Shown piece by piece: positions 566 to 60,531 of a stretch of DNA of 64,000 nucleotides. How positions within the stretch are numbered: position 1 is the first letter of the stretch; every line of letters starts with the position of its first letter. The notes beneath the pieces are model-generated. The model ran no database searches. It was given only the letters and a program-made list of their open reading frames with translations, and was not told the origin of the DNA. The stretch is taken from assembly GCA_016188865.1 (NCBI GenBank), contig JACPGX010000005.1:114081-178080 (forward strand), in the 5' to 3' direction. The translations under genes and the position numbers were made by a program. This DNA is from Candidatus Nealsonbacteria bacterium (GTDB lineage Bacteria; Patescibacteriota; Minisyncoccia; Minisyncoccales; MHMH01).

Positions 566-1785
566 AGTTATCAATAGCTTTAATGGCTATGGCCATTTTT
601 GCCTCTGTTGCCGGAGGAGTTTTTATTTTAAAACAAGAAAAAGAGATAGTTATTGAAAATAATGGGAGTCCGACTCCCATTATTGCGGCGACTTCGACGA
701 TATTAGGAGGTTCGATCTCCGAAACATTAAATCAGGAGGTCGAACCTCAAAACATCTCGACGTCGACAGAAGACGTCATCAAGCAGGTGCAGGCTCTAAT
801 CCTCGAGACTCAAAAATTCATTGAAAAAGAAAATGAGAAAAAAATACTGGTCGAGGAAGCTCGAGAGAAATCCAGCAAGATTAGGGGGATATATGCTGGG
901 ACAGCGAGAAACCAAGGTTATTTTAAGAATTTTCTTTCGGAAACAGATTTGAATGGGGTGGTTATTGATATTAAAGAAAGTTATGGAATTAATCTGCCCA
1001 TATCTTTGCGGAGTTTTATTTCAGAGCTGCATAAAGAAAGCAATTGGGTAATAGCTAGAATTGTGCTTTTTCGCGATTCCTCTTTAATCGAAGAGAAACC
1101 AGAGTGGTATTTATTTGCCACGAGTTCTCCTTGGCGGGACGGCAGCTCGCAATACTGGTTTGATCCCAGCAATAAAGAAGTTCAGGATTATTTGATTGAG
1201 TTTTCAAAGAAAGCGATTGATTACGGCTTTGACGAATTGCAGTTTGATTATATACGCTACCCCGATGATTACACTTATATTCCAGGCGAAGAGAAAGTAA
1301 AAATAATGGGTGAATTTTTTTCTGACATTTCCAAAGCTCTTAAGGAATACAAGCCGTCAATTATTCTTTCTGCCGACCTTTTCGGCTATGTGGCCACTCA
1401 ATTTAACAGTTATGGCACGGGCCAAAGATTATTTGATGCAGGAAAATATTTTGATTATTTGTCTTTCATGCTGTATCCAAGTCATTTTTACGGCGGTTTT
1501 AATTATCAGGAAATTTATTATTCTTATCCAGATGTGGTTGAACATCCTTACGATGTTGTTTATTATTCTATCGCTTCAGCCAGAGATTATCTTGCCTTAT
1601 TCGGTTCGGAAGCAAAAATTCGGCCATGGTTGCAGGATTTTGATTTAGCTATAGATTCCAGCAGGGGAGTATTTTACGATGCGGAAAAAATAGGTTTTGA
1701 AATTGAGGCTAGTCAGAACGCCACCTCTTCCGGCTGGCTTTTGTGGAATCCTTCATATATTTATACTAAAGAAGCCTTAAAATAG
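562..1785 (+). CDS. Putative glycoside-hydrolase-like (GHL/DUF4015-type TIM barrel) exported protein
   Basis: It has an N-terminal hydrophobic segment. The region GTARNQGYF...VVIDIKESYG...FDELQFDYIRYP...LSFMLYPSHF resembles the putative glycosyl hydrolase DUF4015 family. I have not verified this by search. Confidence 0.5.
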   Translation: MKLSIALMAMAIFASVAGGVFILKQEKEIVIENNGSPTPIIAATSTILGGSISETLNQEVEPQNISTSTEDVIKQVQALILETQKFIEKENEKKILVEEAREKSSKIRGIYAGTARNQGYFKNFLSETDLNGVVIDIKESYGINLPISLRSFISELHKESNWVIARIVLFRDSSLIEEKPEWYLFATSSPWRDGSSQYWFDPSNKEVQDYLIEFSKKAIDYGFDELQFDYIRYPDDYTYIPGEEKVKIMGEFFSDISKALKEYKPSIILSADLFGYVATQFNSYGTGQRLFDAGKYFDYLSFMLYPSHFYGGFNYQEIYYSYPDVVEHPYDVVYYSIASARDYLALFGSEAKIRPWLQDFDLAIDSSRGVFYDAEKIGFEIEASQNATSSGWLLWNPSYIYTKEALK

Positions 1786-12274: not shown

Positions 12275-12318
12275 GGAGGTCCGACCTCCCGACAAATATG
12301 ACGGGAGGTCGGACCTCC
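12275..12318. repeat. Palindromic repeat family A, second copy, inverted relative to the copy at 1978
   Basis: Arms are GGAGGTCCGACCTCCCG and CGGGAGGTCGGACCTCC, with a 10-nt spacer ACAAATATGA. It is flanked by GATATT / AGATATT, as copy 1 is. Confidence 0.85.
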
Positions 12319-12777: not shown

Positions 12778-13452
12778 TCAATCAAGTAATTGTTTTTCAT
12801 CTAGTATTTTGGATAAATCTTTAGCTCCGCTTGTTTCCACGAATAATTTATACTTTTCACTGCTAGAAAATTGTTTGGTGACAATGCCAGTTTCTAAAAG
12901 ATTTCCCCACCGATTTTTATTTATACAATCCTGGTAACTAGAATAAGGGAAGAGGTGTTCTCTGTCGGCCCATTCCTTGATTTCTCTTGGATTGCGGTGA
13001 ATATAAGCGGAGAGATAAAGAAGCTGGTCGTCATTTTTAATATGGACAATTTGAAATGGGCCCTGAAAAAGATGCCCCGAGATTTTATATTTTGTATTGA
13101 AGTATTTTGTATAAGCGTTTAAAACTCTTTGCATATATTGGGAAATACCGTTTTCTTTTAATCCGTGGATAATTAAATGGAAATGATTTGGCATCAGCGT
13201 GAAATTAATCAATTCTATGCTTCGATTTTTTATTATTTCCTCTACAACCTCCCGCGAGATGTTAAACACCGAGTGTCTAACAAAGCAGGCAACTTGTCTG
13301 CCGAGATTATAGAAAGTCAAATGAGATTGGCAGTGAGTGATTAAGAAAAGAAATCTTATCCAATCTTTTTCATCACGAAAAACTGGTTGTTTATTATTAC
13401 CCCTATTGTAGATGTGATAATATTCTCCGGAAACAATTTTAACTTTTCTCAT
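12778..13452 (-). CDS. REP-associated tyrosine transposase (RAYT / IS200-IS605-like HUH Y1 transposase), paralog 1
   Basis: HUH motif MPNHFHLII, catalytic Tyr motif YIHRNP, and an N-terminal GEYYHIYNRG beta-strand. It is flanked on both sides by cognate hairpins. Confidence 0.75.
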   Translation of the reverse strand: MRKVKIVSGEYYHIYNRGNNKQPVFRDEKDWIRFLFLITHCQSHLTFYNLGRQVACFVRHSVFNISREVVEEIIKNRSIELINFTLMPNHFHLIIHGLKENGISQYMQRVLNAYTKYFNTKYKISGHLFQGPFQIVHIKNDDQLLYLSAYIHRNPREIKEWADREHLFPYSSYQDCINKNRWGNLLETGIVTKQFSSSEKYKLFVETSGAKDLSKILDEKQLLD

Positions 13453-15679: not shown

Positions 15680-17047
15680 TTATCGTTGAATTTTTTTTAA
15701 TTTCGAGCCTTGCTTGGTATCTTCAACCTGCCAGTCGAGCTTTATTATCTCATTTCTTATTTCATCGGCTTTTTGCCAGTCGCTTTTTTTTCGATATTCT
15801 TGGCGTTGCCTGACTAAGTCAAGCAACGCTTTCGGGGGCTTTTTTTGGTGTTTTGGCCAGAAGATAAAGTTTAAAAATTCGTCAATCTGTTTTAGAAATT
15901 TTAAAGTATCTTTAGCATCTAAAGTATTTTTTTGGCGCATTAGGTCAAATATCACGGCAATGGCTTTCGGCGTGTTAAAGTCGTCTTCCATGGCTTTTTC
16001 GAAGTTGGTTTCCAATTTTTTGATTTCCGAAATCCTCTCAAATTTGAGTGGATTTCGGAAATCTTTTAATCTGTCGACGAATTCATCAATCTTTTCCAAT
16101 TCTCTTTCGGCCTGCGCGACAGATTCTTCGGTATAATCAATAGGCGAACGGTAATGATTTTTTAGTATCAAAAATCTTAATAAGCGGGGGGAGTATTTTT
16201 CTGTAAAGTCTTTAATGGTTATAAAATTGCCTAGCGATTTAGACATTTTTTGCCCATTGACTTTTAAAAAGCCGGGATGCAGCCAGTATTTTACCATCGG
16301 CCTTTTACTGGAGATAGCTTCCATTTGAGCTATTTCAGCCTCGTGGTGGGGGAACATTAAATCAACCGCTCCTCCGTGCATATCATACTGGGAGCCGAAG
16401 AATTTTTCGGTAATGGCCGTATCCTCTATGTGCCAGCCTGGTCTGCCAAAACCCCACGGGCTAGGCCATTTGGGTTCTCCGGGTTTGGAGATTTTCCATA
16501 AAGCAAAGTCCCCTTTATTTTTTTTGCTTACAGCTTCATCGATTCTGGAAACCGCATCTTCTGCCTGCAGGGCGGTTCTTCCCGATAATTTTCCGTAATT
16601 TTTAAACTTTGAAATATCGTAATAAATACCGTCTTCTATCTGATAGGCATACTTTTTATCCAGCAGTTTTTTCACTTGGCCGATTATTTCTTTTATGTAA
16701 TCTGTAGCTCTTGCGTATTTTGTAACAGCATTAACCTTCAAATTCTTCATATCTTCCGAATATTTTTTTTCAAAATTTCGGGCTAGTTTTAAAGGAGAAA
16801 TTCCTTTTTCTTTTGCTCGGTTTATAATTTTGTCGTCGATGTCAGTAATATTCTGCAAATAAAAAATATTAAAGCCTCTTTGCTTTAAATATTTTGCAAT
16901 CATGTCAAAAGCCAGATATGTTCTAGCGTGCCCGATATGGGCTGAATCGTAAACCGTCGGCCCGCAAACAAAAAGTTTTATTTTTTTGCCATGGGCTGGC
17001 TTGAATATTTCTTTTTTCCGCGTTAAGGTACTATAAAGCTTTAGCAT
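15680..17047 (-). CDS. cysS: Cysteine--tRNA ligase
   Basis: HIGH-type motif CGPTVYDSAHIGHARTY and KMSKS motif KMSKSLGN. Confidence 0.9.
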   Translation of the reverse strand: MLKLYSTLTRKKEIFKPAHGKKIKLFVCGPTVYDSAHIGHARTYLAFDMIAKYLKQRGFNIFYLQNITDIDDKIINRAKEKGISPLKLARNFEKKYSEDMKNLKVNAVTKYARATDYIKEIIGQVKKLLDKKYAYQIEDGIYYDISKFKNYGKLSGRTALQAEDAVSRIDEAVSKKNKGDFALWKISKPGEPKWPSPWGFGRPGWHIEDTAITEKFFGSQYDMHGGAVDLMFPHHEAEIAQMEAISSKRPMVKYWLHPGFLKVNGQKMSKSLGNFITIKDFTEKYSPRLLRFLILKNHYRSPIDYTEESVAQAERELEKIDEFVDRLKDFRNPLKFERISEIKKLETNFEKAMEDDFNTPKAIAVIFDLMRQKNTLDAKDTLKFLKQIDEFLNFIFWPKHQKKPPKALLDLVRQRQEYRKKSDWQKADEIRNEIIKLDWQVEDTKQGSKLKKIQR

Positions 17048-40411: not shown

Positions 40412-41014
40412 ATGGATAAAAAACACTGGGTTGAAGAGAAATTTGAAGAATGCGGGGCAATTTTAGACGGGCATTTTGTTTTAGCTTCCGAAAGGCACAG
40501 TAAGACATATTTGGAAAAAGCCTTAGTTTACGTTAACCCGGAAATAGTCTCAGAGCTATGCTATCAGATGGCTATAAATGTCGGCCTATCTTCAAAAGTA
40601 AGCGTTTCAAATATCGAATGCGTTGTTGGTCCATCTTTGGGCGGTATTATTTTATCTCAATTTACCGCCTATCATTTAAGCTCTATGTTTTCGAAAAATG
40701 TATTATCGCTATTCACAGAAAAAGATGCCGCCGGGAAACAAGTTCTTAAGAGAGGATATCAGAAACTCATTGCTGGTAAAAGAGTATTAATTGTTGACGA
40801 TATTTTAACCACTGGGGAATCGATTAAGCAAGTAGCTCAAGCAGTTGAGCAAGCCGGAGGAATAATTGTGGCTGTAGCTGTGATATGTAACCGCGAAGAT
40901 GTAACTTCAGCAAAGCTCGGCTATCCGCTTTTCTGTCTGTGGAGAACAAATATCGAAAGCTGGCCGGCAAAAGAGTGCCCCCTATGTCAGCGAGGCATTC
41001 CCATCACAATGTAA
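40412..41014 (+). CDS. pyrE: Orotate phosphoribosyltransferase
   Basis: PRPP-binding motif VLIVDDILTTGESI. Confidence 0.85.
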   Translation: MDKKHWVEEKFEECGAILDGHFVLASERHSKTYLEKALVYVNPEIVSELCYQMAINVGLSSKVSVSNIECVVGPSLGGIILSQFTAYHLSSMFSKNVLSLFTEKDAAGKQVLKRGYQKLIAGKRVLIVDDILTTGESIKQVAQAVEQAGGIIVAVAVICNREDVTSAKLGYPLFCLWRTNIESWPAKECPLCQRGIPITM

Positions 41015-41033
41015 CTGGTACGACCCGTTACAT
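41009..41033. repeat. REP-like palindrome, family 2 (ATGTAACtGGTACGACCCGTTACAT, 1 mismatch), overlapping the pyrE stop
   Basis: The same palindrome occurs at 41109-41133 and 41851-41875 (both perfect). Confidence 0.85.
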
Positions 41034-41037
41034 ATTA

Positions 41038-41066
41038 AAAAGAGCTTTGTAAAAAGCTCTTTTATG
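41038..41066 (+). terminator. Rho-independent terminator (AAAAGAGCTTT-GTA-AAAGCTCTTTT)
   Basis: An 11-bp stem flanked by A- and T-runs, between two REP copies after pyrE. Confidence 0.7.
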
Positions 41067-41108: not shown

Positions 41109-41133
41109 ATGTAACGGGTACGACCCGTTACAT
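41109..41133. repeat. REP-like palindrome, family 2 (ATGTAACGGGTACGACCCGTTACAT), at the 5' flank of RAYT-2
   Basis: A perfect 10-bp stem with an ACG loop. It ends at the RAYT-2 start codon. Confidence 0.9.
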
Positions 41134-41851
41134 GCATAATATGCCGGGGAAAAGAAAGGTACAATTTGTTAATGGGGGAATATATCATATCGTAACGAGA
41201 GCCGTTGATGGCACGGAACTTTTTCGTGAACAAGGCGATAATCTTCGGATGACTCATGATATTTTTGAATTTAATGATTTAACGCCACTTTCATCAGCGT
41301 TGCGAATTGTTCATTGTCGAAATAAAAATAACACCATTCCTCTTACTACGGAACGCAGAGAAAGGAAATTATTAGTGGAAATCTTGGCATTTTGTTTTAT
41401 GCCTAACCATGTTCATTTATTACTTAGACAACTTCAAGACAGGGGAGTTCAAAAATTTATGCAAAAATTAGGTGGTTACACCACTTATTATAATAAAAAA
41501 TATCAGAGGCAGGGTTATCTTTTTCAGGGCAGATATCGAGCAGTTCACATTAAAGATGATAAACAATTAATGACGGTATTTGTTTATATTCATACTAATC
41601 CAGTGGCCCTTCTTTACCCGGGCTGGAAAGAAAGAGGTATTAAAGATATTAAAAAGGCCATAGAATTTATTAATCAATATAGATGGTCAAGCTATTTGGA
41701 TTATCTGGGAATTAAGAATTTTCCGTCTTTGACCAGTAGAGAATTTTTAATAAAAACAATAGGTGGAATGGAAGAGTGCCAAAGATTAGTAGAAGATTGG
41801 CTTTATCAAAAACGTGTACTATTTGACCTTGATAAGGTCGCACTGGAATAA
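41132..41851 (+). CDS. REP-associated tyrosine transposase (RAYT), paralog 2
   Basis: HUH motif MPNHVHLLL, Tyr motif YIHTNP, and the C-terminal WSSY motif (RWSSYLDYLG). The start is set at the ATG overlapping the palindrome; 41141 is also possible. The ORF-track start at 41084 reads through the palindrome. Confidence 0.75.
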   Translation: MHNMPGKRKVQFVNGGIYHIVTRAVDGTELFREQGDNLRMTHDIFEFNDLTPLSSALRIVHCRNKNNTIPLTTERRERKLLVEILAFCFMPNHVHLLLRQLQDRGVQKFMQKLGGYTTYYNKKYQRQGYLFQGRYRAVHIKDDKQLMTVFVYIHTNPVALLYPGWKERGIKDIKKAIEFINQYRWSSYLDYLGIKNFPSLTSREFLIKTIGGMEECQRLVEDWLYQKRVLFDLDKVALE

Positions 41852-41875
41852 TGTAACGGGTACGACCCGTTACAT
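41851..41875. repeat. REP-like palindrome, family 2, at the 3' flank of RAYT-2
   Basis: A perfect copy overlapping the RAYT-2 stop codon. Confidence 0.9.
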
Positions 41876-43008: not shown

Positions 43009-44976
43009 ATGATATTTTCATATAATTGGCTGCAATCTTTTTTCACGAGAAAATTGCCCAAGCCGGAAAAATTGGCAGAGCTTTTGACTATGCATAGTTT
43101 TGAAGTAGGGGAAGTTAAAAAAGCCGGTAGCGATTGGACACTAGATATCGATGTCTTGCCAAACAGGGCGGGAGATTGTTTTTCGCATTTCGGAATAGCC
43201 AGAGAAATAGCCGCTATTATAAATTCGAAATTCGAAATTCGAAATTCGAAACAAATTATAAATTCTAAATTACAAACGAAAGATTTTGTTTCGGTGGACG
43301 TTAGGGCTAAACAGGCGTGTTTAAGATATACGGCCAAAGTGATTACAGACGTTAAGGTGGGGCCATCCCCAAAGTGGTTGAAAGATAAGCTGGAAGTTTG
43401 CGGCTTGAATTCCATTAATAATGTGGTAGATGCCGCCAATTACGTGATGCTAGAGACTGGTCAGCCAATGCATGCCTTTGATTTAGAGAAATTAGAAGAT
43501 CAAAAAATTATTGTTAGATTTGCCAAAGAAGACGAGAAAATTACGACTTTAGACAATCAGGTATTCAATCTAAACCCAGCAATACTGGTTATTGCCGATG
43601 TTAAAAAACCGGTAGCTATAGCCGGAATTAAGGGGGGCACATCTCCGGAGATCAGTGAAGCGACAAAAACCATAGTTTTGGAGTCGGCCAATTTCGATCC
43701 GACTATTACCCGTAGAGCATCAAAAGAGTTAAATCTTAAAACAGACGCATCCTTGAGATTTGAACACGGAATTGATCCCAATTTATCCGAAATAGCAATC
43801 GATAGGGCAGCCGAGATTATTTCACGAGTTGCTGGCGGTCAAATTGCTTCAGGATTAGTTGATTTTTATTCCAAGAAAGTTTTGCCCAAAAGAATTAAAT
43901 TGGATTTGGATTATTTAAAAAGCTTGTTAGGCATTGAAATTTCAGCTGCTGAAGTAAAAGTGATTTTAAACAGCTTAGGTTTTAAAATAATCGGAGTCCG
44001 ACTCCCATTATTGGTTGAAATTCCGACATTCAGGTTAGATATTTCTCTGCAGGAAGATTTGATTGAAGAAGTTGGCCGGATTTATGGTTATGATAAAATA
44101 CCGGTTGTTTTTCCTCTGGCTTCTTTGATCCCGCCCGTCAGAAACGATAATTTATTTTGGACCAGCATAGTAAAAGATATTTTTAGAGGAGTCGGTTTTA
44201 CAGAAATATATAACTATTCTTTTCAAAAAGAAGCAGGAGAAGTAGAAGTAGAAAATCCCCAAAGTTTGGAATATCGATATTTAAGGCCAAGTTTGATTCC
44301 TAATTTATTGAAAAACGTTGAAAAGAACAGCGTCAATTTTAAAAAGATAAAAATTTTTGAGTTGGGGAAGGTATTCGAAGATAAGACAGAGAAGAGAATG
44401 CTTACCGGGATGCTTGTTGGAGAAGATTTCTATCGGTTGAAAGGAGTGATAGATTCGCTTTTCAATAAATTGGGCATAGTTAAAGTTTGGTATGACGATT
44501 ATCAGGCTAGCCCGGAAGATAGTCCAAAATCTTTGTGGCATCATAAAAAATCCGCAGAAATTAAAGTTAGAGACATTGAGCTGGGTTTTTTGGGTGAACT
44601 AAAAGATAAGCCCAATATAGTGGCTTTCGATTTAGATTTTGATAAATTAACGGCTCTGGCTTCAGAAGAGCACGAATACAGGCAAATTTCTAAATACCCT
44701 GCGACAATAAGAGATTTAGCAGTTTTGGTGCCCGCATTAACCAGAGTGGAAGAAGTGCTGAATGTTATAGAAACGGCAGGCGGCAGTATTTTAAAAGATG
44801 TTGATTTATTTGATATTTATGAAGGAGAAGGCATTGGAGATGGGAAGAAAAATTTAGCTTTTCATTTTGTTTATCAGGCAGAGGACAGAACTTTAACCTC
44901 GATTGAAGTTTATAAAATTCATCAAAAAATAATTGAAGCTCTGGAGGAAAATCCAGAGTGGGAAGTGAGACGATAA
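43009..44976 (+). CDS. pheT: Phenylalanine--tRNA ligase beta subunit (short form)
   Basis: It has B3/B4 and B5 domains and a C-terminal anticodon-binding domain. It follows pheS. It contains an in-frame heptamer microsatellite at 43221-43252. Confidence 0.85.
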   Translation: MIFSYNWLQSFFTRKLPKPEKLAELLTMHSFEVGEVKKAGSDWTLDIDVLPNRAGDCFSHFGIAREIAAIINSKFEIRNSKQIINSKLQTKDFVSVDVRAKQACLRYTAKVITDVKVGPSPKWLKDKLEVCGLNSINNVVDAANYVMLETGQPMHAFDLEKLEDQKIIVRFAKEDEKITTLDNQVFNLNPAILVIADVKKPVAIAGIKGGTSPEISEATKTIVLESANFDPTITRRASKELNLKTDASLRFEHGIDPNLSEIAIDRAAEIISRVAGGQIASGLVDFYSKKVLPKRIKLDLDYLKSLLGIEISAAEVKVILNSLGFKIIGVRLPLLVEIPTFRLDISLQEDLIEEVGRIYGYDKIPVVFPLASLIPPVRNDNLFWTSIVKDIFRGVGFTEIYNYSFQKEAGEVEVENPQSLEYRYLRPSLIPNLLKNVEKNSVNFKKIKIFELGKVFEDKTEKRMLTGMLVGEDFYRLKGVIDSLFNKLGIVKVWYDDYQASPEDSPKSLWHHKKSAEIKVRDIELGFLGELKDKPNIVAFDLDFDKLTALASEEHEYRQISKYPATIRDLAVLVPALTRVEEVLNVIETAGGSILKDVDLFDIYEGEGIGDGKKNLAFHFVYQAEDRTLTSIEVYKIHQKIIEALEENPEWEVRR

Positions 44977-48633: not shown

Positions 48634-49185
48634 ATGGAATCAACAAATTCTCAAAATCAGAGGCCTTCATGGGATGAGTTTTGGTTCACTTTGGCGCTTT
48701 TTTATTCTACTCGTGGAACTTGCGACAGGTTGAAAGCAGCCTGTCTTTTAATTGATAAAAATAATAGGCTGGTTGGAGCCGGTTATAACGGTTCTCTGCC
48801 CGGGCATCCGCATTGCGACGAGGCAGGGCATTTGATGGTTGACGGCCATTGTTTGAGGACTTTGCATGCTGAAGTTAATGCCATTATGCACAGCGTGGGA
48901 GATTTGGAGGGAGCTACTGCTTATGTTTTGGGGACTCCCTGCATTGACTGCGTCAAAAAACTTCTTGCTAAAAAAGTGAAAAAGATTTTTTTTACCAGGG
49001 ATTACGATAATCAGGCCCGCGGGGGAGAATATATTTTTGATTTAGCCAAAACATCGGGAGCGGAAATGAGGAGAGTTGATGTGGATTTTACGGAAGTTTT
49101 AAGTAAGGAAATGACAATTCTTACCGGAACAGGTGGCGCTTTCTTCGGCCAAAATTATGGGTTTACGAAACCCACTCAAATTTGA
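48634..49185 (+). CDS. dCMP deaminase (ComEB-type CMP/dCMP deaminase, zinc-binding)
   Basis: HAEVNAI and PCIDCVKKL zinc-ligand motifs. Confidence 0.8.
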   Translation: MESTNSQNQRPSWDEFWFTLALFYSTRGTCDRLKAACLLIDKNNRLVGAGYNGSLPGHPHCDEAGHLMVDGHCLRTLHAEVNAIMHSVGDLEGATAYVLGTPCIDCVKKLLAKKVKKIFFTRDYDNQARGGEYIFDLAKTSGAEMRRVDVDFTEVLSKEMTILTGTGGAFFGQNYGFTKPTQI

Positions 49186-49210
49186 GAGGGTTTCGTAAAC
49201 CCCAAATATA

Positions 49211-50266: not shown

Positions 50267-50935
50267 TTGGTGAAAAAATTTTTGGATGTAGTTTCTCTTG
50301 AAGCGAGGGATTTACCCGAAGCTTGGCGGTCTTGCGTGAGAGAGCTTTTCGATAAGGGCCATAAATATAAGATTGACAGGGGCAGCTTTGCCGGACAGCA
50401 TAGACTGGAATTTGATTTTATCACCGTCAGAGTCAAGTATCCCGGTACCAGACCCATAGTTCCGGTGCTTGATGTGCCTCAAGGCGTGCCGCCGCCTTCA
50501 ACGATGGATTATGTTGAATCTTACCTGCCTTATTTAATGACTTCTGAAAGAAAAGAAGGCGAGCAATATACTTACGGCCAATATCTTGAACCGCAGATTG
50601 CCAAAGCGATCAAAATGTACAAAGAAGACGGACACGGCACCAATCAGGCGTACATGGCCGTGGGCGATAAAAACTCCATTGATCTTTCCGATCCTCCTTG
50701 TTTGAGAGGCATTGATACCAGAATAAGGTACGGAAAACTCCACTTTATGGTCTATTTTCGCTCTTGGGACCTTTGGGCCGGCTTTCCTTCTAATTTGGCG
50801 GCTATACAGCTTTTGAAAGAATATATGGGCTCCGAAATCGGCGTGGAGGACGGAGAACTGATAGCTTGCAGCAAGGGCCTGCACCTTTACGAATATATTT
50901 GGGATATGGCCAAAGTGATGTGCGGAATAAAATAG
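50267..50935 (+). CDS. Thymidylate synthase ThyA-family protein, short divergent (archaeal-like) form
   Basis: PPC (nucleophile Cys), LHFMVYFRSWDLWAGFPSN (aligns with LSCQLYQRSADVFLGLPFN, including the uracil-specifying Asn) and GELIACSKGLHLY. Only 222 aa. Confidence 0.6.
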   Translation: MVKKFLDVVSLEARDLPEAWRSCVRELFDKGHKYKIDRGSFAGQHRLEFDFITVRVKYPGTRPIVPVLDVPQGVPPPSTMDYVESYLPYLMTSERKEGEQYTYGQYLEPQIAKAIKMYKEDGHGTNQAYMAVGDKNSIDLSDPPCLRGIDTRIRYGKLHFMVYFRSWDLWAGFPSNLAAIQLLKEYMGSEIGVEDGELIACSKGLHLYEYIWDMAKVMCGIK

Positions 50936-50943
50936 AATAATAA

Positions 50944-50974
50944 AGCTCTCGACTTTCGAGGGCTTTTCATTTTG
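50944..50974 (+). terminator. Rho-independent terminator (AGCTCTCGA-CTT-TCGAGGGCT + TTTCATTTT)
   Basis: A hairpin with one mismatch and a T-rich tail after the ThyA-like gene. Confidence 0.55.
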
Positions 50975-50999
50975 TATTTATTAATCCATATGTTATATT

Positions 51000-51028
51000 A
51001 AAGTAGCGGGAACATTTCCCGTTACTTT
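51000..51028. repeat. REP-like palindrome, family 3 (AAAGTAGCGGGAA-CAT-TTCCCGTTACTTT), at the 5' flank of RAYT-3
   Basis: 13-bp arms with one A-C mismatch. It is related to family 2 through the shared GTAACGGG...CCCGTTAC core. Confidence 0.85.
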
Positions 51029-51032
51029 AATT

Positions 51033-51743
51033 ATGCCGAGTAAAAAAAGGCCGCCATTAGTTAATAGCGAGATATATCATATAGTAATAAGGACAGTAGA
51101 GGATCTTAAACTTTTTCGTGATGACCACGATTTTTTAAGAATGATACATGATTTATTCGCTTTTAATGACACAGTGCCAGTTTCCTCATATTTTCGTAGG
51201 GATAAAGTAACGGGAACGTTTCCCGCTACTTTTATGAAGAGAAAAAGAGAAGTATTGGTTGAAATTTTAGCCTTTTGCTTGATGTCGAATCATGTTCATT
51301 TATTAGTACGTCAATTAAAAGACGATGGAATAAGTAATTTTATGAGAAAAATTGGAGCCGGTTACAGCGCTTATTATAATCAGAAATATAAGAGAGCTGG
51401 TCATGTTTTTCAGGGAAGATATAAAATAGTTCATATAACCAATGATAATCAGCTAAAAACTATTTTTGTATATATTCACACTAATCCAGTGGCAATTATT
51501 TATCCCCACTGGAAGGAGGAAGGGATCGGAATTAAATATTTAGGCAAAGTTATTCAATTTATAGAAGAATACCGTTGGTCAAGTTATTCAGATTATCTTG
51601 GAAATAAAAATTTTCCATCTCTGACTTTCAGAGAATGGTTGATGGGAGAGATTGGCGGGATCAACGAGTGCCGAAGATTTATTAATGATTGGCTGGAAAC
51701 AAAAAAAGATTTAGCTGATTTGGATAAAATTGCTATCAATTAA
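51033..51743 (+). CDS. REP-associated tyrosine transposase (RAYT), paralog 3
   Basis: HUH motif MSNHVHLLV, Tyr motif YIHTNP and the RWSSYSDYLG motif. It is closest to paralog 2. It contains an in-frame copy of its own REP palindrome at 51204-51232. Confidence 0.75.
   Translation: MPSKKRPPLVNSEIYHIVIRTVEDLKLFRDDHDFLRMIHDLFAFNDTVPVSSYFRRDKVTGTFPATFMKRKREVLVEILAFCLMSNHVHLLVRQLKDDGISNFMRKIGAGYSAYYNQKYKRAGHVFQGRYKIVHITNDNQLKTIFVYIHTNPVAIIYPHWKEEGIGIKYLGKVIQFIEEYRWSSYSDYLGNKNFPSLTFREWLMGEIGGINECRRFINDWLETKKDLADLDKIAIN
51204..51232. repeat. REP family 3 palindrome embedded in-frame within the RAYT-3 coding sequence (encodes KVTGTFPATF)
   Basis: AAAGTAACGGGAA-CGT-TTCCCGCTACTTT. It lies in the variable loop between the N-terminal strand and the HUH motif. 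Paralog 2 has no insertion at this position. Confidence 0.85.
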
Positions 51744-51747
51744 TTTT

Positions 51748-51776
51748 AAAGTAACGGGAAATGTTCCCGCTACTTT
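51748..51776. repeat. REP-like palindrome, family 3, at the 3' flank of RAYT-3 (inverted orientation)
   Basis: AAAGTAACGGGAA-ATG-TTCCCGCTACTTT, 5 nt after the stop. Confidence 0.85.
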
Positions 51777-54796: not shown

Positions 54797-54840
54797 AAAA
54801 GGGGAGAGATCGCTAAGATCTTCTCCCCTTATTTGTTTAT
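54797..54840. terminator. Bidirectional rho-independent terminator (GGGGAGAGATC...GATCTTCTCCCC)
   Basis: The stem is flanked by an A-run upstream and a T-run downstream. It serves the small ORF on the plus strand and miaA on the minus strand. Confidence 0.7.
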
Positions 54841-55722
54841 AAATTTTTGAGCTAAACTTTTAGCTTCTTTGTAGTTTTTCACCCAATAAATGCGATTATC
54901 TCTTTTGAACCAAGTCATTTGGCGTTTGGCAAAATGCTCAATATCTTTTTGCAATAAACTAACGAGAACCGTTCTCGTCAGTTTTGATTGCAAATATCGC
55001 GCGAGCCAGCGGTATTCTAAGCCGAATTCTTCCAGCTGTTTCCAAGAAACGCCCGACTGGCGCAGTTTTTTAACTTCGGCAATCATGCCTTGTTTAAGCC
55101 TTTTAAGCAGGCGTTTTTTTATTAATTTTTTTAACTCTTCAGGAGATTTTTTAATTCCAATCATTAATACGGGATAGGGCAGTGGATTTTTCTGCAAAAC
55201 AGGGACAACTCCTATTTTTTTTGCAATTTCTATGGCCCTGATTAGCCTTCTGCGGTTATATCTATCAATAGTGTTAGCCCTTCTCGGATCAAGCTTTTTT
55301 ATCTTTTCAAATAACGCTTCAGTGTTTAAACTATTGAGGCCCGACCTCAATAGTAAATCAGGTTTTACTTCGGGGATTGCGATGCCATCTACCACTGCTT
55401 GGATATAAAAACCAGTTCCGCCGCAAAGAATGGGAATTTTGTTTTTTTTGAATATTTTATTTATTGCCGCCAGCGCCATTTTTTTATATTCAGCTACTGT
55501 AAATCTTCTTTTAGGAGAAGCGACGTCTAAAAGATGGTGAAGGATGCCTTGCTTTTCTCTTTTGCTGATTTTGCCTGTGCCGATATCCATGCCTTTGTAA
55601 ACCTGCCTTGAATCAGCTGAAATAATCTCGCCATTGAATTTTTTAGCGAGCTTGACGGCTAATCCAGATTTTCCGGAAGCTGTTTGCCCTAAAATAACGA
55701 TGATTTTTTGAGCTATTGACAT
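54829..55722 (-). CDS. miaA: tRNA dimethylallyltransferase
   Basis: P-loop GQTASGKS and DSRQVYKGMDIGT motifs. It contains an in-frame 23-bp palindrome at 54959-54981. Confidence 0.9.
   Translation of the reverse strand: MSIAQKIIVILGQTASGKSGLAVKLAKKFNGEIISADSRQVYKGMDIGTGKISKREKQGILHHLLDVASPKRRFTVAEYKKMALAAINKIFKKNKIPILCGGTGFYIQAVVDGIAIPEVKPDLLLRSGLNSLNTEALFEKIKKLDPRRANTIDRYNRRRLIRAIEIAKKIGVVPVLQKNPLPYPVLMIGIKKSPEELKKLIKKRLLKRLKQGMIAEVKKLRQSGVSWKQLEEFGLEYRWLARYLQSKLTRTVLVSLLQKDIEHFAKRQMTWFKRDNRIYWVKNYKEAKSLAQKFINK
54959..54981. repeat. Palindrome CTAACGAGAACCGTTCTCGTCAG (22/23) in-frame within miaA, encoding LTRTVLV
   Basis: The same palindrome occurs perfect within thrS at 60281-60303. Its core occurs in the terminator at 25044-25068. 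Confidence 0.9.
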
Positions 55723-57218: not shown

Positions 57219-58808
57219 TTAGTGTATTTCTTCTTTCTTTTCCCTTAAAAACGATCTCCATTGTTCTAGAAATTCCAAAAATACCTGAAATGGCATATCG
57301 AGCAGGGAATTTAACAAAACAGCTACCGCGTTATATTTCTGCCATTGGCTGGAAAGCCATTTGCCGACCTGGATTATCGGCAAAGAGAAAAGATCAATAA
57401 AGGTTTGCAGGAAGCTCTCTTTATCTTTTTCCATCTTAAGCTCTCTCGCCCTTTGGCGGATTTTTATACCGGCAAAAGATATTAAAGAAGTGAACATTAG
57501 AAAAATAATAATAGAAATCGGGCTGAAATTTAATTTTCGCAAGCCCCAGACGATCAAACCGAAAGAGGCGATAAAGCTAAGGAGGTAAATAAGCACCATA
57601 ATTGAATTTAAAATAAGTCCTCTTTTGGGCGCTGTTCTGATTTCATAAATATCTTTCCCTTCTCTTTCATAGGCTATTTTCATTATTTCCATTACAACCA
57701 ATTGTTCATTTTGCCTTGAAGGGGGTTTAATGGAAATAACCAAAAAAACCATCAGAAGCGGAGGAATCAAGATATTTATTCCCATATTGAAATAATCAAA
57801 GGCGCCCGTGACATATTTATCGAAAGGCACTTCAATCGCAAAAGCTATCAGCATTTTAGATAATAATATGGAAAGAGTGCTGTAAAAAGCAGCTCTTTTC
57901 AAACTGCCCTTAACTTTTTTTAATCTTTCTTTATAAACAGCTTTGATTTTGTTTTCTAAAACTTCGGGATTACTTAAAATATTTTCTATTTCCGATGGTT
58001 CTGCAGAAATAATATCGCCCAATATTAAGTAAGCCGTATCGTATCTTTCGCAAATAGCATAGAATTTTTCAGTAAGAGGGTGGCGAAGGCTGTTTTCCAC
58101 CTTTTCCCAAGTAAAATAAATATTTTTTGCTATTTGTTCAAATTTTTCTGAAGGAAGGTTGCGCCAATCGGGCAGCCAAGTCTTTAAAAGGTTATAACTT
58201 ATAAGCGGAACATCAAACTTAAAAAGAGCTTTTTGAATTGCAATGTAAATTTGAGTATTTTTTTCTTCCTGGCTGATTTTTGATTCGATTCTTTCCCGCA
58301 TCAGTTCGAGCATAAAACCCATTAAAGCAGTTTCTCTGATAGGCGGAGCTAAAATTTCTTCTATTTCGCAAGCAGCAATTCCTAAAACCCAGTCATGAAG
58401 CTGCATATGCCCCTTTTTATTTGACGAAGACGGAATACTGTCTAGATTATCTAAAATATAAGTGTACTTATCGATTGACTTTTGAATTTCGGCTATTTTT
58501 GTTTCAGGAATGGCATCATTAAGAAAGTGTCCGCCTCTGATTAATTCATTGACAAATGGTTCTGAAATCTCTTTGCCTTTTCTTCTTAAAAATAACCGCC
58601 TTTTTAAAACCCTTTCTATGGCAGTTTTTCTCAAGAGGTGCTCTTCCCGCCAGTCAACAATACCTCGCATTTTTTCATAAAAAGTGGCAACCCTGCTCAC
58701 CACTTCATCGACGTGGATTGTGGGAATTCCTTCCTTAATTCTGGAGGAGCTGTACCAATTTTTATAGCCGGATATGAGTTTTTTTGTTGCTTGAGATATT
58801 TCAGGCAT
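57219..58808 (-). CDS. Large hypothetical membrane protein (soluble N-terminal half, multi-TM C-terminal half)
   Basis: A 529-aa ORF with about 5 TM helices between residues 300 and 470. No recognisable motif. Confidence 0.4.
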   Translation of the reverse strand: MPEISQATKKLISGYKNWYSSSRIKEGIPTIHVDEVVSRVATFYEKMRGIVDWREEHLLRKTAIERVLKRRLFLRRKGKEISEPFVNELIRGGHFLNDAIPETKIAEIQKSIDKYTYILDNLDSIPSSSNKKGHMQLHDWVLGIAACEIEEILAPPIRETALMGFMLELMRERIESKISQEEKNTQIYIAIQKALFKFDVPLISYNLLKTWLPDWRNLPSEKFEQIAKNIYFTWEKVENSLRHPLTEKFYAICERYDTAYLILGDIISAEPSEIENILSNPEVLENKIKAVYKERLKKVKGSLKRAAFYSTLSILLSKMLIAFAIEVPFDKYVTGAFDYFNMGINILIPPLLMVFLVISIKPPSRQNEQLVVMEIMKIAYEREGKDIYEIRTAPKRGLILNSIMVLIYLLSFIASFGLIVWGLRKLNFSPISIIIFLMFTSLISFAGIKIRQRARELKMEKDKESFLQTFIDLFSLPIIQVGKWLSSQWQKYNAVAVLLNSLLDMPFQVFLEFLEQWRSFLREKKEEIH

Positions 58809-60531
58809 CTTTTTCCATTTTAACTTTTTCTGTGAATTTACTCAACTCCATAGCTCCAATATCGCCCCTTCCCCTTTCTCTAACGCTTATTTTGCCAGAT
58901 TCAGCTTCCTTGTCGCCCACGACTATGAGGTAGGGGACTTTTTGAAGTTCGCCTTCTCTGATTCTTTTAGAAACAGTTTCATTTCCATTATTTATCTCAA
59001 TTCTAAGGAAGTTAAGCTCATCTCTAATTTTTTCCGCATATTGATTATGTCTGTCGGCTATGGGAATGATCATGCATTGAACCGGTGATAGCCATAAAGG
59101 TAAGGCTCCCGCATAGTGTTCCAGAAGAAAAGCCATGGTTCTTTCTATGGCGCCGATTGAAGAGCGGTGTATGACAATCGGCTCTTTTTCCTTGCCATCT
59201 TGATCAATATAGCTAAGTTTGAATCTTTTGGGCATAACAAAATCGTACTGTATGGTAAAGGCAGTGTCTTCTTTCCCGGCGAAGTTTTTCATTTGAATGT
59301 CGATTTTCGGGCCGTAAAAAGCAGCCTCTTTTTGAGCTTCAAAAAAGTTATCTTTGCCTCTTTTGGTAAGAACGTTTCTTAAAACTCCCTCGGCAAAATT
59401 CCAGGCCTCGTTATCTTTAAAATATTTTTTAGAGTCTTTTCTGTCGCCTAAGGATAATCTATAGCGATAATTTACGCCGGCTTTCAGCCCTAATTTTAAA
59501 GCCATATATTCGATTAAATCTAAAACTCCATTGATTTCGTCCATAGCCTTTTCTTTTTGGCAGATAATATGGGCATCGGCTAAACAGAAAGATCGTACCC
59601 TGATTAGGCCGGTCAATTCGCCCGATTTTTCGTATCGAAATTGCTTGGCTAATTCGGCAATCCTAAAGGGCAATTCTTTATATGACCTTGGTTTTGAAGC
59701 ATACAGCTGAAAATGATGAGGGCAGGTCATAGGTCTTAAAATCAGCTCTTCCTCGTCAATTTTCATGACAGGATACATTGAATCTTTGTAATACGGATAA
59801 TGCCCCGACGTTTTATACAGTTCCACTTTGGCTAATTCTGGAGTATAAACGTGCTTATAGCCTCTTTTTATTTCTTCATCGACTACAAAACGTTCCAGTT
59901 CCCTTCTAATGATAGATCCCTTTTCGGTAAACAAGGGGAGGCCCTTGCCGACTAAATCGGAAAAAACAAATAAATCTAAATTTTTTCCTATAATCCTATG
60001 GTCTCTTTTTTCAGCTTCTTCCTGTATTTTGAGAAAATCCTCCAGTTCTTTTTTTATTGCAAAAGCTACCCCGTATATTCTGGTCAGCATTTTATTTTTT
60101 TCAGAGCCCTTCCAATAAGCTCCGGCAATTTTCGTCAGCTTAAAAGCATCGGGGGTTATCTCTTTTGTTGATTTAACATGCGGCCCCGAACACAAATCAA
60201 CAAACGTTCCTGATTCGTATATAGTCGGCTGCTTAATTTCCTTTAGCAGCTCTAGCTTATACGGTTGTTTTTTGAACATCCTGACGAGAACGGTTCTCGT
60301 CAGTTTTTGTTTTTTGAAAACAATGTTTTGCGCCAGCAGTTCGCGCATTTTTTTCTCTATTTTCAGCAGGTCTTCCGGCGCTAGGGGAACGGATAATTCG
60401 AAATCGTAATAAAAGCCGTTTTCAATGGCGGGCCCAATGCCAAATTTGGCGCCGGGATATAACTCCTGCACTGCGTAAGCCATTATATGGGCCAAAGAAT
60501 GGCGGATAGTTTCGATTTTAGCAGACATCAA
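58801..60531 (-). CDS. thrS: Threonine--tRNA ligase (short form without the N-terminal TGS/editing extension)
   Basis: SLAHIMAYAV (zinc-site HxxxH region), class II motifs and a C-terminal anticodon-binding domain. It contains an in-frame 23-bp palindrome at 60281-60303. Confidence 0.9.
   Translation of the reverse strand: MMSAKIETIRHSLAHIMAYAVQELYPGAKFGIGPAIENGFYYDFELSVPLAPEDLLKIEKKMRELLAQNIVFKKQKLTRTVLVRMFKKQPYKLELLKEIKQPTIYESGTFVDLCSGPHVKSTKEITPDAFKLTKIAGAYWKGSEKNKMLTRIYGVAFAIKKELEDFLKIQEEAEKRDHRIIGKNLDLFVFSDLVGKGLPLFTEKGSIIRRELERFVVDEEIKRGYKHVYTPELAKVELYKTSGHYPYYKDSMYPVMKIDEEELILRPMTCPHHFQLYASKPRSYKELPFRIAELAKQFRYEKSGELTGLIRVRSFCLADAHIICQKEKAMDEINGVLDLIEYMALKLGLKAGVNYRYRLSLGDRKDSKKYFKDNEAWNFAEGVLRNVLTKRGKDNFFEAQKEAAFYGPKIDIQMKNFAGKEDTAFTIQYDFVMPKRFKLSYIDQDGKEKEPIVIHRSSIGAIERTMAFLLEHYAGALPLWLSPVQCMIIPIADRHNQYAEKIRDELNFLRIEINNGNETVSKRIREGELQKVPYLIVVGDKEAESGKISVRERGRGDIGAMELSKFTEKVKMEKDA
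60281..60303. repeat. Perfect palindrome CTGACGAGAACGGTTCTCGTCAG in-frame within thrS, encoding LTRTVLV
   Basis: It is the reverse-complement orientation of the miaA copy. The encoded peptide is identical. Confidence 0.9.

Follow-up and report, generated by a model that had tools for sequence, protein, structure and literature searches.

Why should the gene of a palindrome-recognising enzyme carry, inside its own reading frame, a copy of the palindrome that brackets it? The question is raised by RAYT-3, one of three paralogous Y1 HUH genes (RAYT-1, RAYT-2 and RAYT-3) in a 64,000-nucleotide (nt) stretch of Candidatus Nealsonbacteria DNA (candidate phyla radiation, CPR/Patescibacteria; contig JACPGX010000005.1, positions 114,081-178,080, forward), hereafter the window. 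Each of the three genes is bracketed, a few nt from its start and stop codons, by a private palindrome resembling repetitive extragenic palindromic (REP) sequences, and in RAYT-3 a 29-nt palindrome, AAAGTAACGGGAACGTTTCCCGCTACTTT (51204-51232), also lies in frame within the gene. The answer that we favor, with a probability of roughly 0.6, is that this internal palindrome is a tolerated, ancient third copy of the cognate hairpin, which is kept in concert with the copies at the gene ends and is a real substrate in vivo.

The palindrome of RAYT-3 (family 3) is present as a left (L), an internal (I) and a right (R) copy (Table 1). Allowing up to 3 mismatches, the family-3 pattern matches these three sites only in the whole window, with 0 expected from 100 shuffles; the complete, in-frame copy that the initial annotation had seen inside RAYT-3 is thus confirmed. 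L is the exact reverse complement of R. In its arms the internal copy equals R, with a different 3-nt loop. This loop, CGT, is closer to the loop of L (CAT), though the arms match R. As single-stranded DNA the internal copy folds with -8.9 kcal/mol on the plus strand (z = -3.7) and with -10.5 kcal/mol on the minus strand (z = -5.1), and L folds with -12.7 kcal/mol (z = -6.8). A GTAG tetranucleotide lies inside the family-3 stem on one strand only, where it is made by a G.T/A.C mismatch; no consistent GTAG was seen at the hairpin foot in family 1, in family 2 or in most of the remaining loci. This canonical REP tetranucleotide is on the top strand in L and on the bottom strand in I and R.

The internal copy is centered 73 nt ahead of the codon for the first HUH His and falls in the variable loop that connects the N-terminal strand/helix to the HUH strand, as initially described. 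In the AlphaFold model of RAYT-3 (mean predicted local distance difference test score, pLDDT, of 73.8) the pLDDT of residues 52-69, which include the hairpin-encoded peptide, is below 50, and the internal palindrome is predicted to encode a surface loop that is disordered and links helix A to the HUH strand. M68, whose codon directly follows the hairpin, was considered as an internal start and rejected, as it is not conserved among homologues. Upstream of RAYT-3, a terminator-like hairpin (50942-50966) closes the preceding gene (50267-50935) and is followed by about 35 nt before L (50966-51000; TTGTAT...TATATT, by eye a possible promoter), so that L would stand at the extreme 5' end of the RAYT-3 transcript; a consensus promoter scan called no promoter at 50966-51000.

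The DNA of 160 homologous loci was retrieved, which gave 144 non-redundant CPR/Patescibacteria loci including the three window genes. A first hint came from the loop peptides of 120 close homologues (eg, LTRTVLVS, LTGSDPVN, KSRTVLDS, ARTVLA, and PRSVLG), in which T covaries with V, S with D, A with A, and P with G, because an in-frame palindrome NCGAGG...CCTCGN' yields exactly this pattern. At most loci the strongest hairpin inside the open reading frame (ORF) is again found in this loop and repeats the sequence of the palindromes that flank the gene at that locus, while the palindromes themselves are wholly different between loci (eg, AAGCTGGTCGAAGCCCGGCTTCGACCAGCTT, TCTATTGATTTCCGAAATCAATA, and AATATTCGGTCCTTGAAGGACCGAATATT). 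An exact match of at least 15 nt to the own flanks is present in the gene interior at 99 of the 144 loci, compared with a 99th percentile of 14 nt and a maximum of 17 nt for foreign flanks, and in 96 of these 99 loci the center of the match is 52-115 nt before the HUH His codon. When the loop is compared without any preselection, it matches its own flanks at 19 or more of 21 nt in 105/144 loci (73%), the flanks of the nearest relative in 38/144 and those of a random locus in 1/144, and the remainder of the gene, which is three times as long, matches its own flanks equally well in 5/144. Overall, the internal copy is retained in 73-82% of loci. The initial annotation had looked to homologues for a lineage-specific insertion in RAYT-3, and the comparison went the other way, with a clade-wide feature in one and the same loop.

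The flanking copies adjoin the genes in most loci, 0-25 nt from the start codon and -2 to +15 nt from the stop codon, and this bracketing by cognate palindromes, the REPtron layout, is seen for all three window genes and most of the 144 loci. The layout of three hairpins (left, internal, right) is ancestral or nearly so, and still present in most of this large CPR clade of class-2 Y1 HUH enzymes, a RAYT/TIRYT-like family of domesticated, transposase-like genes. Dispersal beyond the genes appears weak in the DNA covered: families 1-3 have no copy outside the gene neighborhoods in the window, and the flanks of all loci together hold 32 far copies in 1.03 Mb (0.31 per 10 kb). The prototype, rayT of E. 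coli K-12, was the one gene examined for comparison; no REP lies inside it, the longest word in common being 8-9 nt and the best-matching window 15/21 nt.

Several minor features of the surveyed loci are worth recording. Rare internal copies are located downstream of HUH (+218, +243, and +362; 3/99), for example in L045 (about +224 nt from HUH), and locus L142 carries a REP doublet inside the gene. In the search of representative proteins, the alignments of several homologues are broken into two parts at residues ~64-73, a sign of loops that may be much longer. Very many homologues (loci L081-L160, proteins P0002-P0120) are on contigs of ~0.9-1.5 kb, roughly the gene plus its flanks; this could reflect assembly breaks at the flanking palindromes or merely the short median contig of the collection. 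L117 had seemed to be a gene truncated exactly at its internal hairpin, and its contig simply ends 26 nt upstream. A search of 163 loci for inverted or isolated L-to-I or I-to-R gene segments, as would be left by inversion or deletion between the hairpins (a phase-variation switch), gave only extra full paralogues and contig-end fragments, in assemblies that would hide minority inversion or deletion states.

A closer examination of the internal copies revealed that the element is conserved at the level of DNA and not at that of peptide or RNA. Among copies preselected for a flank match of at least 80%, the identity between an internal copy and its own flank is 94.6%, compared with 72.6% between the internal copies of a gene and its nearest relative, at a median amino acid identity of 71% between the two genes; the bias of this preselection is removed by the 19/21-nt loop test above. 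The hairpin center falls in codon phase 0, 1, and 2 at 33, 34, and 24 loci, respectively, and the phase is clade-specific, being common to 86 of 91 nearest-neighbor pairs. Loci L090 and L093, with 77% amino acid identity, have the core CGAGAACGTTTCTCG in common and read it in different frames, as ARTFLA and YENVSRS, respectively. The initial annotation had held that orthologues with the same peptide over non-palindromic DNA would speak for an ancestral coding sequence; the peptide is not common to the orthologues, and each locus has its own palindrome matching its own flanks. The only visible protein requirement is that the reading frame is kept open. A role of the encoded peptide as a reader of the hairpin was therefore discarded, the peptide being disordered, unconserved and frame-shifted between relatives. 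At the level of nucleic acid, mismatches within the internal stems are about equally often G.T (25) and A.C (20), and no rule governs how the internal copy is oriented with respect to the gene, the left copy or the right copy, its orientation being random; both observations argue against a strand-specific or RNA role.

The loop has a median length of 36 residues with the palindrome and 35 residues without it across the 144 loci, therefore the loci without it are best explained as decayed copies. Half-palindromes are found in L081 and RAYT-1, and a point-mutated copy in L092. In RAYT-1, the single arm reported by the initial annotation is an exact 17-nt arm of the family-1 palindrome, TGTTAGACACTCGGTGT, at 13266-13282, placed by alignment in the homologous loop; TGTTAGACACTCGGTGT has 4 further copies in the window, all of them arms of the palindromes on either side of RAYT-1. 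Together with the next 6 nt, the arm still folds into a 10-bp hairpin that contains one G.T pair (-4.8 kcal/mol, z = -1.9), and the relic is consistent with a deletion of 14 nt between two GTGT repeats of a full 39-nt palindrome. RAYT-2 had been described as the gene without the insertion, which is correct as far as the palindrome is concerned: it has no internal palindrome (fold z = +1.2) and no relic of one in the loop, where the best match of 14/21 nt equals background. A by-eye alignment of its loop to the RAYT-3 palindrome was not supported. The description fails in so far as it implies an insertion that adds length, since the RAYT-3 loop is aligned as 3-4 residues shorter than the RAYT-2 loop. 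RAYT-2 also has three palindrome copies, all of them extragenic and in one orientation; the extra copy lies 100 nt upstream of the gene-proximal one and is separated from it by a terminator-like palindrome at 41038-41063.

These observations lead us to a reading in which repeated copying at the DNA level would keep the internal palindrome nearly identical to the terminal copies of its own locus (concerted evolution). Copying between the three sites is suggested because it is not credible that as many as ~10 stem positions in a locus acquired matching mutations independently. The copying may occur through strand exchange by the encoded enzyme, as TnpAREP in vitro cleaves 5' or 3' of the folded REP and rejoins or transfers strands (PMC8266576), or through replication template switching between the palindromes. 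Where copying fails, the internal copy would decay, either through point mutations or through loss of one arm by slippage, which would explain why RAYT-1 has a one-arm relic and RAYT-2 has no copy. One of the two explanations offered initially, a REP tolerated as a loop expansion, is the better of the two, but as an ancient tolerated element evolving in concert with its flanks; the expansion is not seen at 36 versus 35 residues.

Several points weigh against this reading. Binding or cleavage of the internal copy by the enzyme in vivo is an inference. The losses are scattered at the tips, with only 2 of 26 loci without a copy having a nearest relative that is also without one, whereas neutral irreversible loss should give whole subclades without copies; such scatter hints at selection or at frequent re-acquisition. 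The confinement of 96/99 copies to one loop, though other loops and the C-terminal tail also vary, exceeds simple tolerance unless a single ancestral event is assumed. In addition, all survey loci come from metagenome assemblies, in which palindromes can be mis-assembled, and the identity comparison given above was preselected.

Some of these points would be accommodated if the internal hairpin were a selected third site of a three-hairpin REPtron, in which the enzyme acts on the substrate in its own gene, either for self-regulation or for coupling the gene to its recognition sequence, and itself drives the base-for-base homogenization. We regard this as possible, though clearly less probable than tolerance. 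In its most explicit and equally tentative form, RAYT would bind or nick and reseal its cognate hairpin in the single-stranded DNA of the gene (transcription bubble or lagging-strand template) and thereby limit its own expression or load the enzyme in cis, and the internal site would have to match the ends since one protein reads all three. Hairpins are known to regulate IS200 tnpA. Retention in one loop throughout a clade that has diverged to 35-40% amino acid identity is what such selection would produce, and so are the tip-scattered losses; the flanking copies next to the start and stop codons place all three sites on the transcription unit. On the other hand, about one-fifth of the loci, RAYT-2 included, are without the internal copy and keep an intact ORF and perfect flanking palindromes, the orientation relative to the gene is random, and the absence of a G.U-type wobble bias disfavors an mRNA structure.

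It is also conceivable, but unlikely, that there is no ancient element at all and that REPs insert repeatedly and independently into one permissive loop (hot-spot homing) and then decay. All three codon phases occur and 5 of the 91 nearest-neighbor pairs differ in phase, L142 has an internal doublet, three of the 99 copies lie elsewhere in the gene, in-frame REP-like palindromes are found in other genes of the same genome, and comparable copies have been termed insertions (Quentin et al. 2018, PMC6006769). The phase agreement of the remaining 86 pairs is difficult to reconcile with independent events, and with equal loop lengths the loci without a copy look like decayed copies, not empty sites, with relic peptides and half-palindromes still visible. 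Homing to a hot spot would also call for a conserved target, of which the divergent loop DNA gives no sign.

The second explanation offered initially was an autoregulatory hairpin, and its mRNA version, by ribosome pausing, transcript stabilization, masking of the start codon through pairing with the 5' copy, or early termination, finds no support in the G.T and A.C counts and appears very improbable. It was attractive because of a terminator-like call at 51211-51225 followed by CTACTTTTAT, because the left copy is 4 nt from the ATG, and because IS200 uses mRNA hairpins (cited in PMC3733652). However, the sense-strand mismatch in RAYT-3 is A.C, which does not pair in RNA, G.T and A.C are nearly balanced across loci, orientation is random, and in most homologues the stem is not followed by a T-run. 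A resemblance by chance, or one imposed by coding for the peptide, for which nothing but the shortness of the element speaks, is practically negligible: 3 sites were found with 0 expected in shuffles, flanks of a random locus gave 1/144 matches versus 105/144 observed, and the peptide is unconserved and read in different frames.

Sequence and structure comparisons relate the three genes to the RAYT/TnpAREP enzymes. RAYT-3 itself is 100% identical to an annotated Candidatus Nealsonbacteria protein. All pass the Pfam cutoff of 23 bits for PF01797 (Y1_Tnp; RAYT-3 47.6, RAYT-2 40.8, and RAYT-1 44.6 bits), and their best NCBIfam match is REP_Tyr_transpos (NF047646; 52.9, 47.7, and 40.9 bits, respectively, below the equivalog cutoff of 80). 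In two homologue alignments H87, H89, and Y147 are invariant, with the single catalytic Tyr ~60 residues past HUH, and the motif YIHTNP, in which Y147, H149, N151, and P152 are invariant, carries the Y---NP signature that marks class 2 (Quentin et al. 2018, PMC6006769). A sequence-profile search of the PDB with RAYT-3 gave no match at E ≤ 0.01, and the fold was recognized only by Foldseek with the AlphaFold model, where the top match is 4ER8, the E. coli RAYT bound to a REP hairpin (E = 6e-6, target-normalized TM-score of 0.65), followed by the TnpA of IS608 and ISDra2. The family is large, with 142 proteins at E ≤ 1e-30 and 4841 at E ≤ 1e-10 in a representative library of 1.84 billion proteins, in which every cluster at 50% identity is represented by one protein. 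The RAYT-3 motifs NHVH, FQG, YIHTNP, and RWSSY and the length of 236 residues match subclass 2.1/TIRYT by inspection against Table 1 of PMC6006769, an assignment at motif level only; the subclass is characterized by NHVH, W[EQ]/FQ and Y[IV]HLNP-type motifs, ~238 residues and a proximal tail with SS. The helix-turn-helix domain (Bac_DnaA_C, HTH_23 or HTH_28) that marks the C-terminus of this subclass had no Pfam match at E ≤ 0.01. Subclass 2.1 was reported to be without REPs (PMC6006769), yet in this CPR clade, whose motifs appear to fit it, hairpins adjoin the genes. The three paralogues are diverged (30-60% identity) and carry their own palindromes within 64 kb of a small CPR genome, and a related contig of 271 kb encodes at least 4 paralogues (P0016, P0029, P0034, and P0095). 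This density differs from the picture of one RAYT per genome in proteobacteria.

That a REP may lie inside a RAYT gene is already known. In-frame REPs inside tnpAREP genes have been described and called unique to subclass 2.4 (RAYT group 4), with some cases in subclass 2.8; the hosts of subclass 2.4 are Cyanobacteria and Bacteroidetes, and its REPs are of the GTAG type, long or double-foot (Quentin et al. 2018, PMC6006769). The likeness lies in a REP-flanked RAYT gene with frame-preserving internal REPs in a peripheral variable region away from the catalytic site. The present enzymes do not belong to subclass 2.4, as they are found in CPR hosts, have their copy 52-115 nt upstream of HUH (in the loop from helix A to strand 2), and show the subclass 2.1 motifs (FQ and YIHTNP), 236 residues and an SS tail. 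The copy of the CPR clade differs in being near-universal and fixed in position. A literature search for CPR RAYTs or REPs inside RAYT genes returned Quentin et al. 2018 only, and no description of clade-wide positional constancy, concerted evolution with the flanks or frame independence was found in the searchable literature.

Compared to the REPtron and TIRtron (Ton-Hoang 2012; Di Nocera 2013, PMC3733652), the single Y1 HUH gene bracketed by cognate palindromes, one family per paralogue, is alike, whereas the third, intragenic copy, the apparently barely dispersed palindromes and three paralogues in 64 kb are different. Intragenic in-frame palindromes in unrelated genes are represented by the Rickettsia palindromic elements (RPEs) and by REPs in uvrA/uvrB; the RPEs resemble the present case as short palindromic repeats tolerated in surface loops of functional proteins (PMC3733652). 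They differ in that here the host gene itself encodes the palindrome-recognising enzyme and the copy is matched to the gene's ends. The TnpA fold and hairpins at both gene ends are shared with IS200/IS605 elements (IS608 and ISDra2). In contrast to them, the present genes have Y---NP in place of Y---Q, an extra C-terminal tail, no tnpB and no high-identity multicopy spread, and their end hairpins are near-perfect palindromes without fixed orientation; IS200/IS605 elements have no internal hairpin copy. The genes of the HUH initiators phiX174 gene A and pT181 repC also contain the enzyme's cognate site (own nick site or origin) within the coding sequence. In these, the site is the one essential origin of a circular replicon, whereas here it is chromosomal, accompanied by two end copies, and dispensable in ~1/5 of loci.

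RAYTs are the best candidates for the enzymes that spread REPs. The CPR clade may offer a compact natural read-out of hairpin-to-hairpin copying in vivo over distances of ~200 and ~500 nt, with three sites in one gene and hundreds of independent loci at hand. Intragenic REPs in RAYT genes are extended beyond the single subclass in which they were termed unique, and hairpins would be assigned to subclass 2.1, said to be without them. For annotation, a hairpin within such a RAYT gene should not be taken for a frameshift, a terminator or an assembly error. If the internal copy were indeed a selected third site, it would represent a natural, site-specific, HUH-catalyzed gene conversion within a coding sequence that is widespread in CPR bacteria.

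Table 1. RAYT genes, their palindromes and other in-frame palindromes in the 64-kb window
Feature	Position	Strand	Remarks
RAYT-3 coding sequence	51033-51743	+	236 residues; ORF, Pfam Y1_Tnp
RAYT-3 HUH motif, NHVH	51288-51299	+	codons 86-89; motif
RAYT-3 catalytic Tyr, Y147 in YIHTNP	51471-51473	+	motif
Family-3 palindrome, left flanking copy (L)	51000-51028	+	ends 4 nt before ATG; stem extends 50997-51031
Family-3 palindrome, internal in-frame copy (I)	51204-51232	+	encodes KVTGTFPATF, residues 58-67
Family-3 palindrome, right flanking copy (R)	51748-51776	+	begins 4 nt past stop codon
RAYT-2 coding sequence	41141-41851	+	58-60% amino acid identity to RAYT-3
Family-2 palindrome, further copy	41009-41033	+	1 mismatch; upstream of RAYT-2
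Family-2 palindrome, just upstream of RAYT-2	41109-41133	+	
Family-2 palindrome, just downstream of RAYT-2	41851-41875	+	orientation as upstream copies
RAYT-1 coding sequence	12778-13452	-	224 residues; 30-35% amino acid identity to RAYT-3
Family-1 palindrome, directly upstream of RAYT-1 start codon	13468-13508	-	
RAYT-1 internal relic, TGTTAGACACTCGGTGT + TTAACA	13260-13282	-	full arm and outer end of second arm
Family-1 palindrome, directly downstream of RAYT-1 stop codon	12736-12774	-	loop is complement of upstream copy's loop
In-frame REP-like palindrome in DUF4015 gene	658-684		ORF 562-1785
In-frame REP-like palindrome doublet in cysS	16022-16063		ORF 15680-17047, minus strand
In-frame REP-like palindrome in pheT	43986-44012		ORF 43009-44976
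In-frame REP-like palindromes in miaA	54956-54984, 55330-55354		ORF 54829-55722, minus strand
In-frame REP-like palindrome in thrS	60281-60303		ORF 58801-60531, minus strand

Palindromes are also present elsewhere in the window. Three intergenic REPIN-like doublets (1978-2021, 12275-12318, and 49159-49202), two of them near-identical, are each built from two short GC-rich hairpins in inverted orientation (eg, GGAGGTTCGACCTCC...GGAGGTCGAACCTCC), and their families have no cognate RAYT in the window. The in-frame palindromes in housekeeping genes are of the same build as the RAYT hairpins, and CPR genomes thus tolerate such elements even in aminoacyl-tRNA synthetase genes. The Pfam spans of the affected domains (eg, B5, residues 296-361 vs HMM 1-67; IPPT, residues 40-275 vs HMM 1-243) indicate no obvious net gain in length. 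The copies in pheT and in the DUF4015 gene belong to one family (AATAATSGGAGTCCGACTCCCATTATT).

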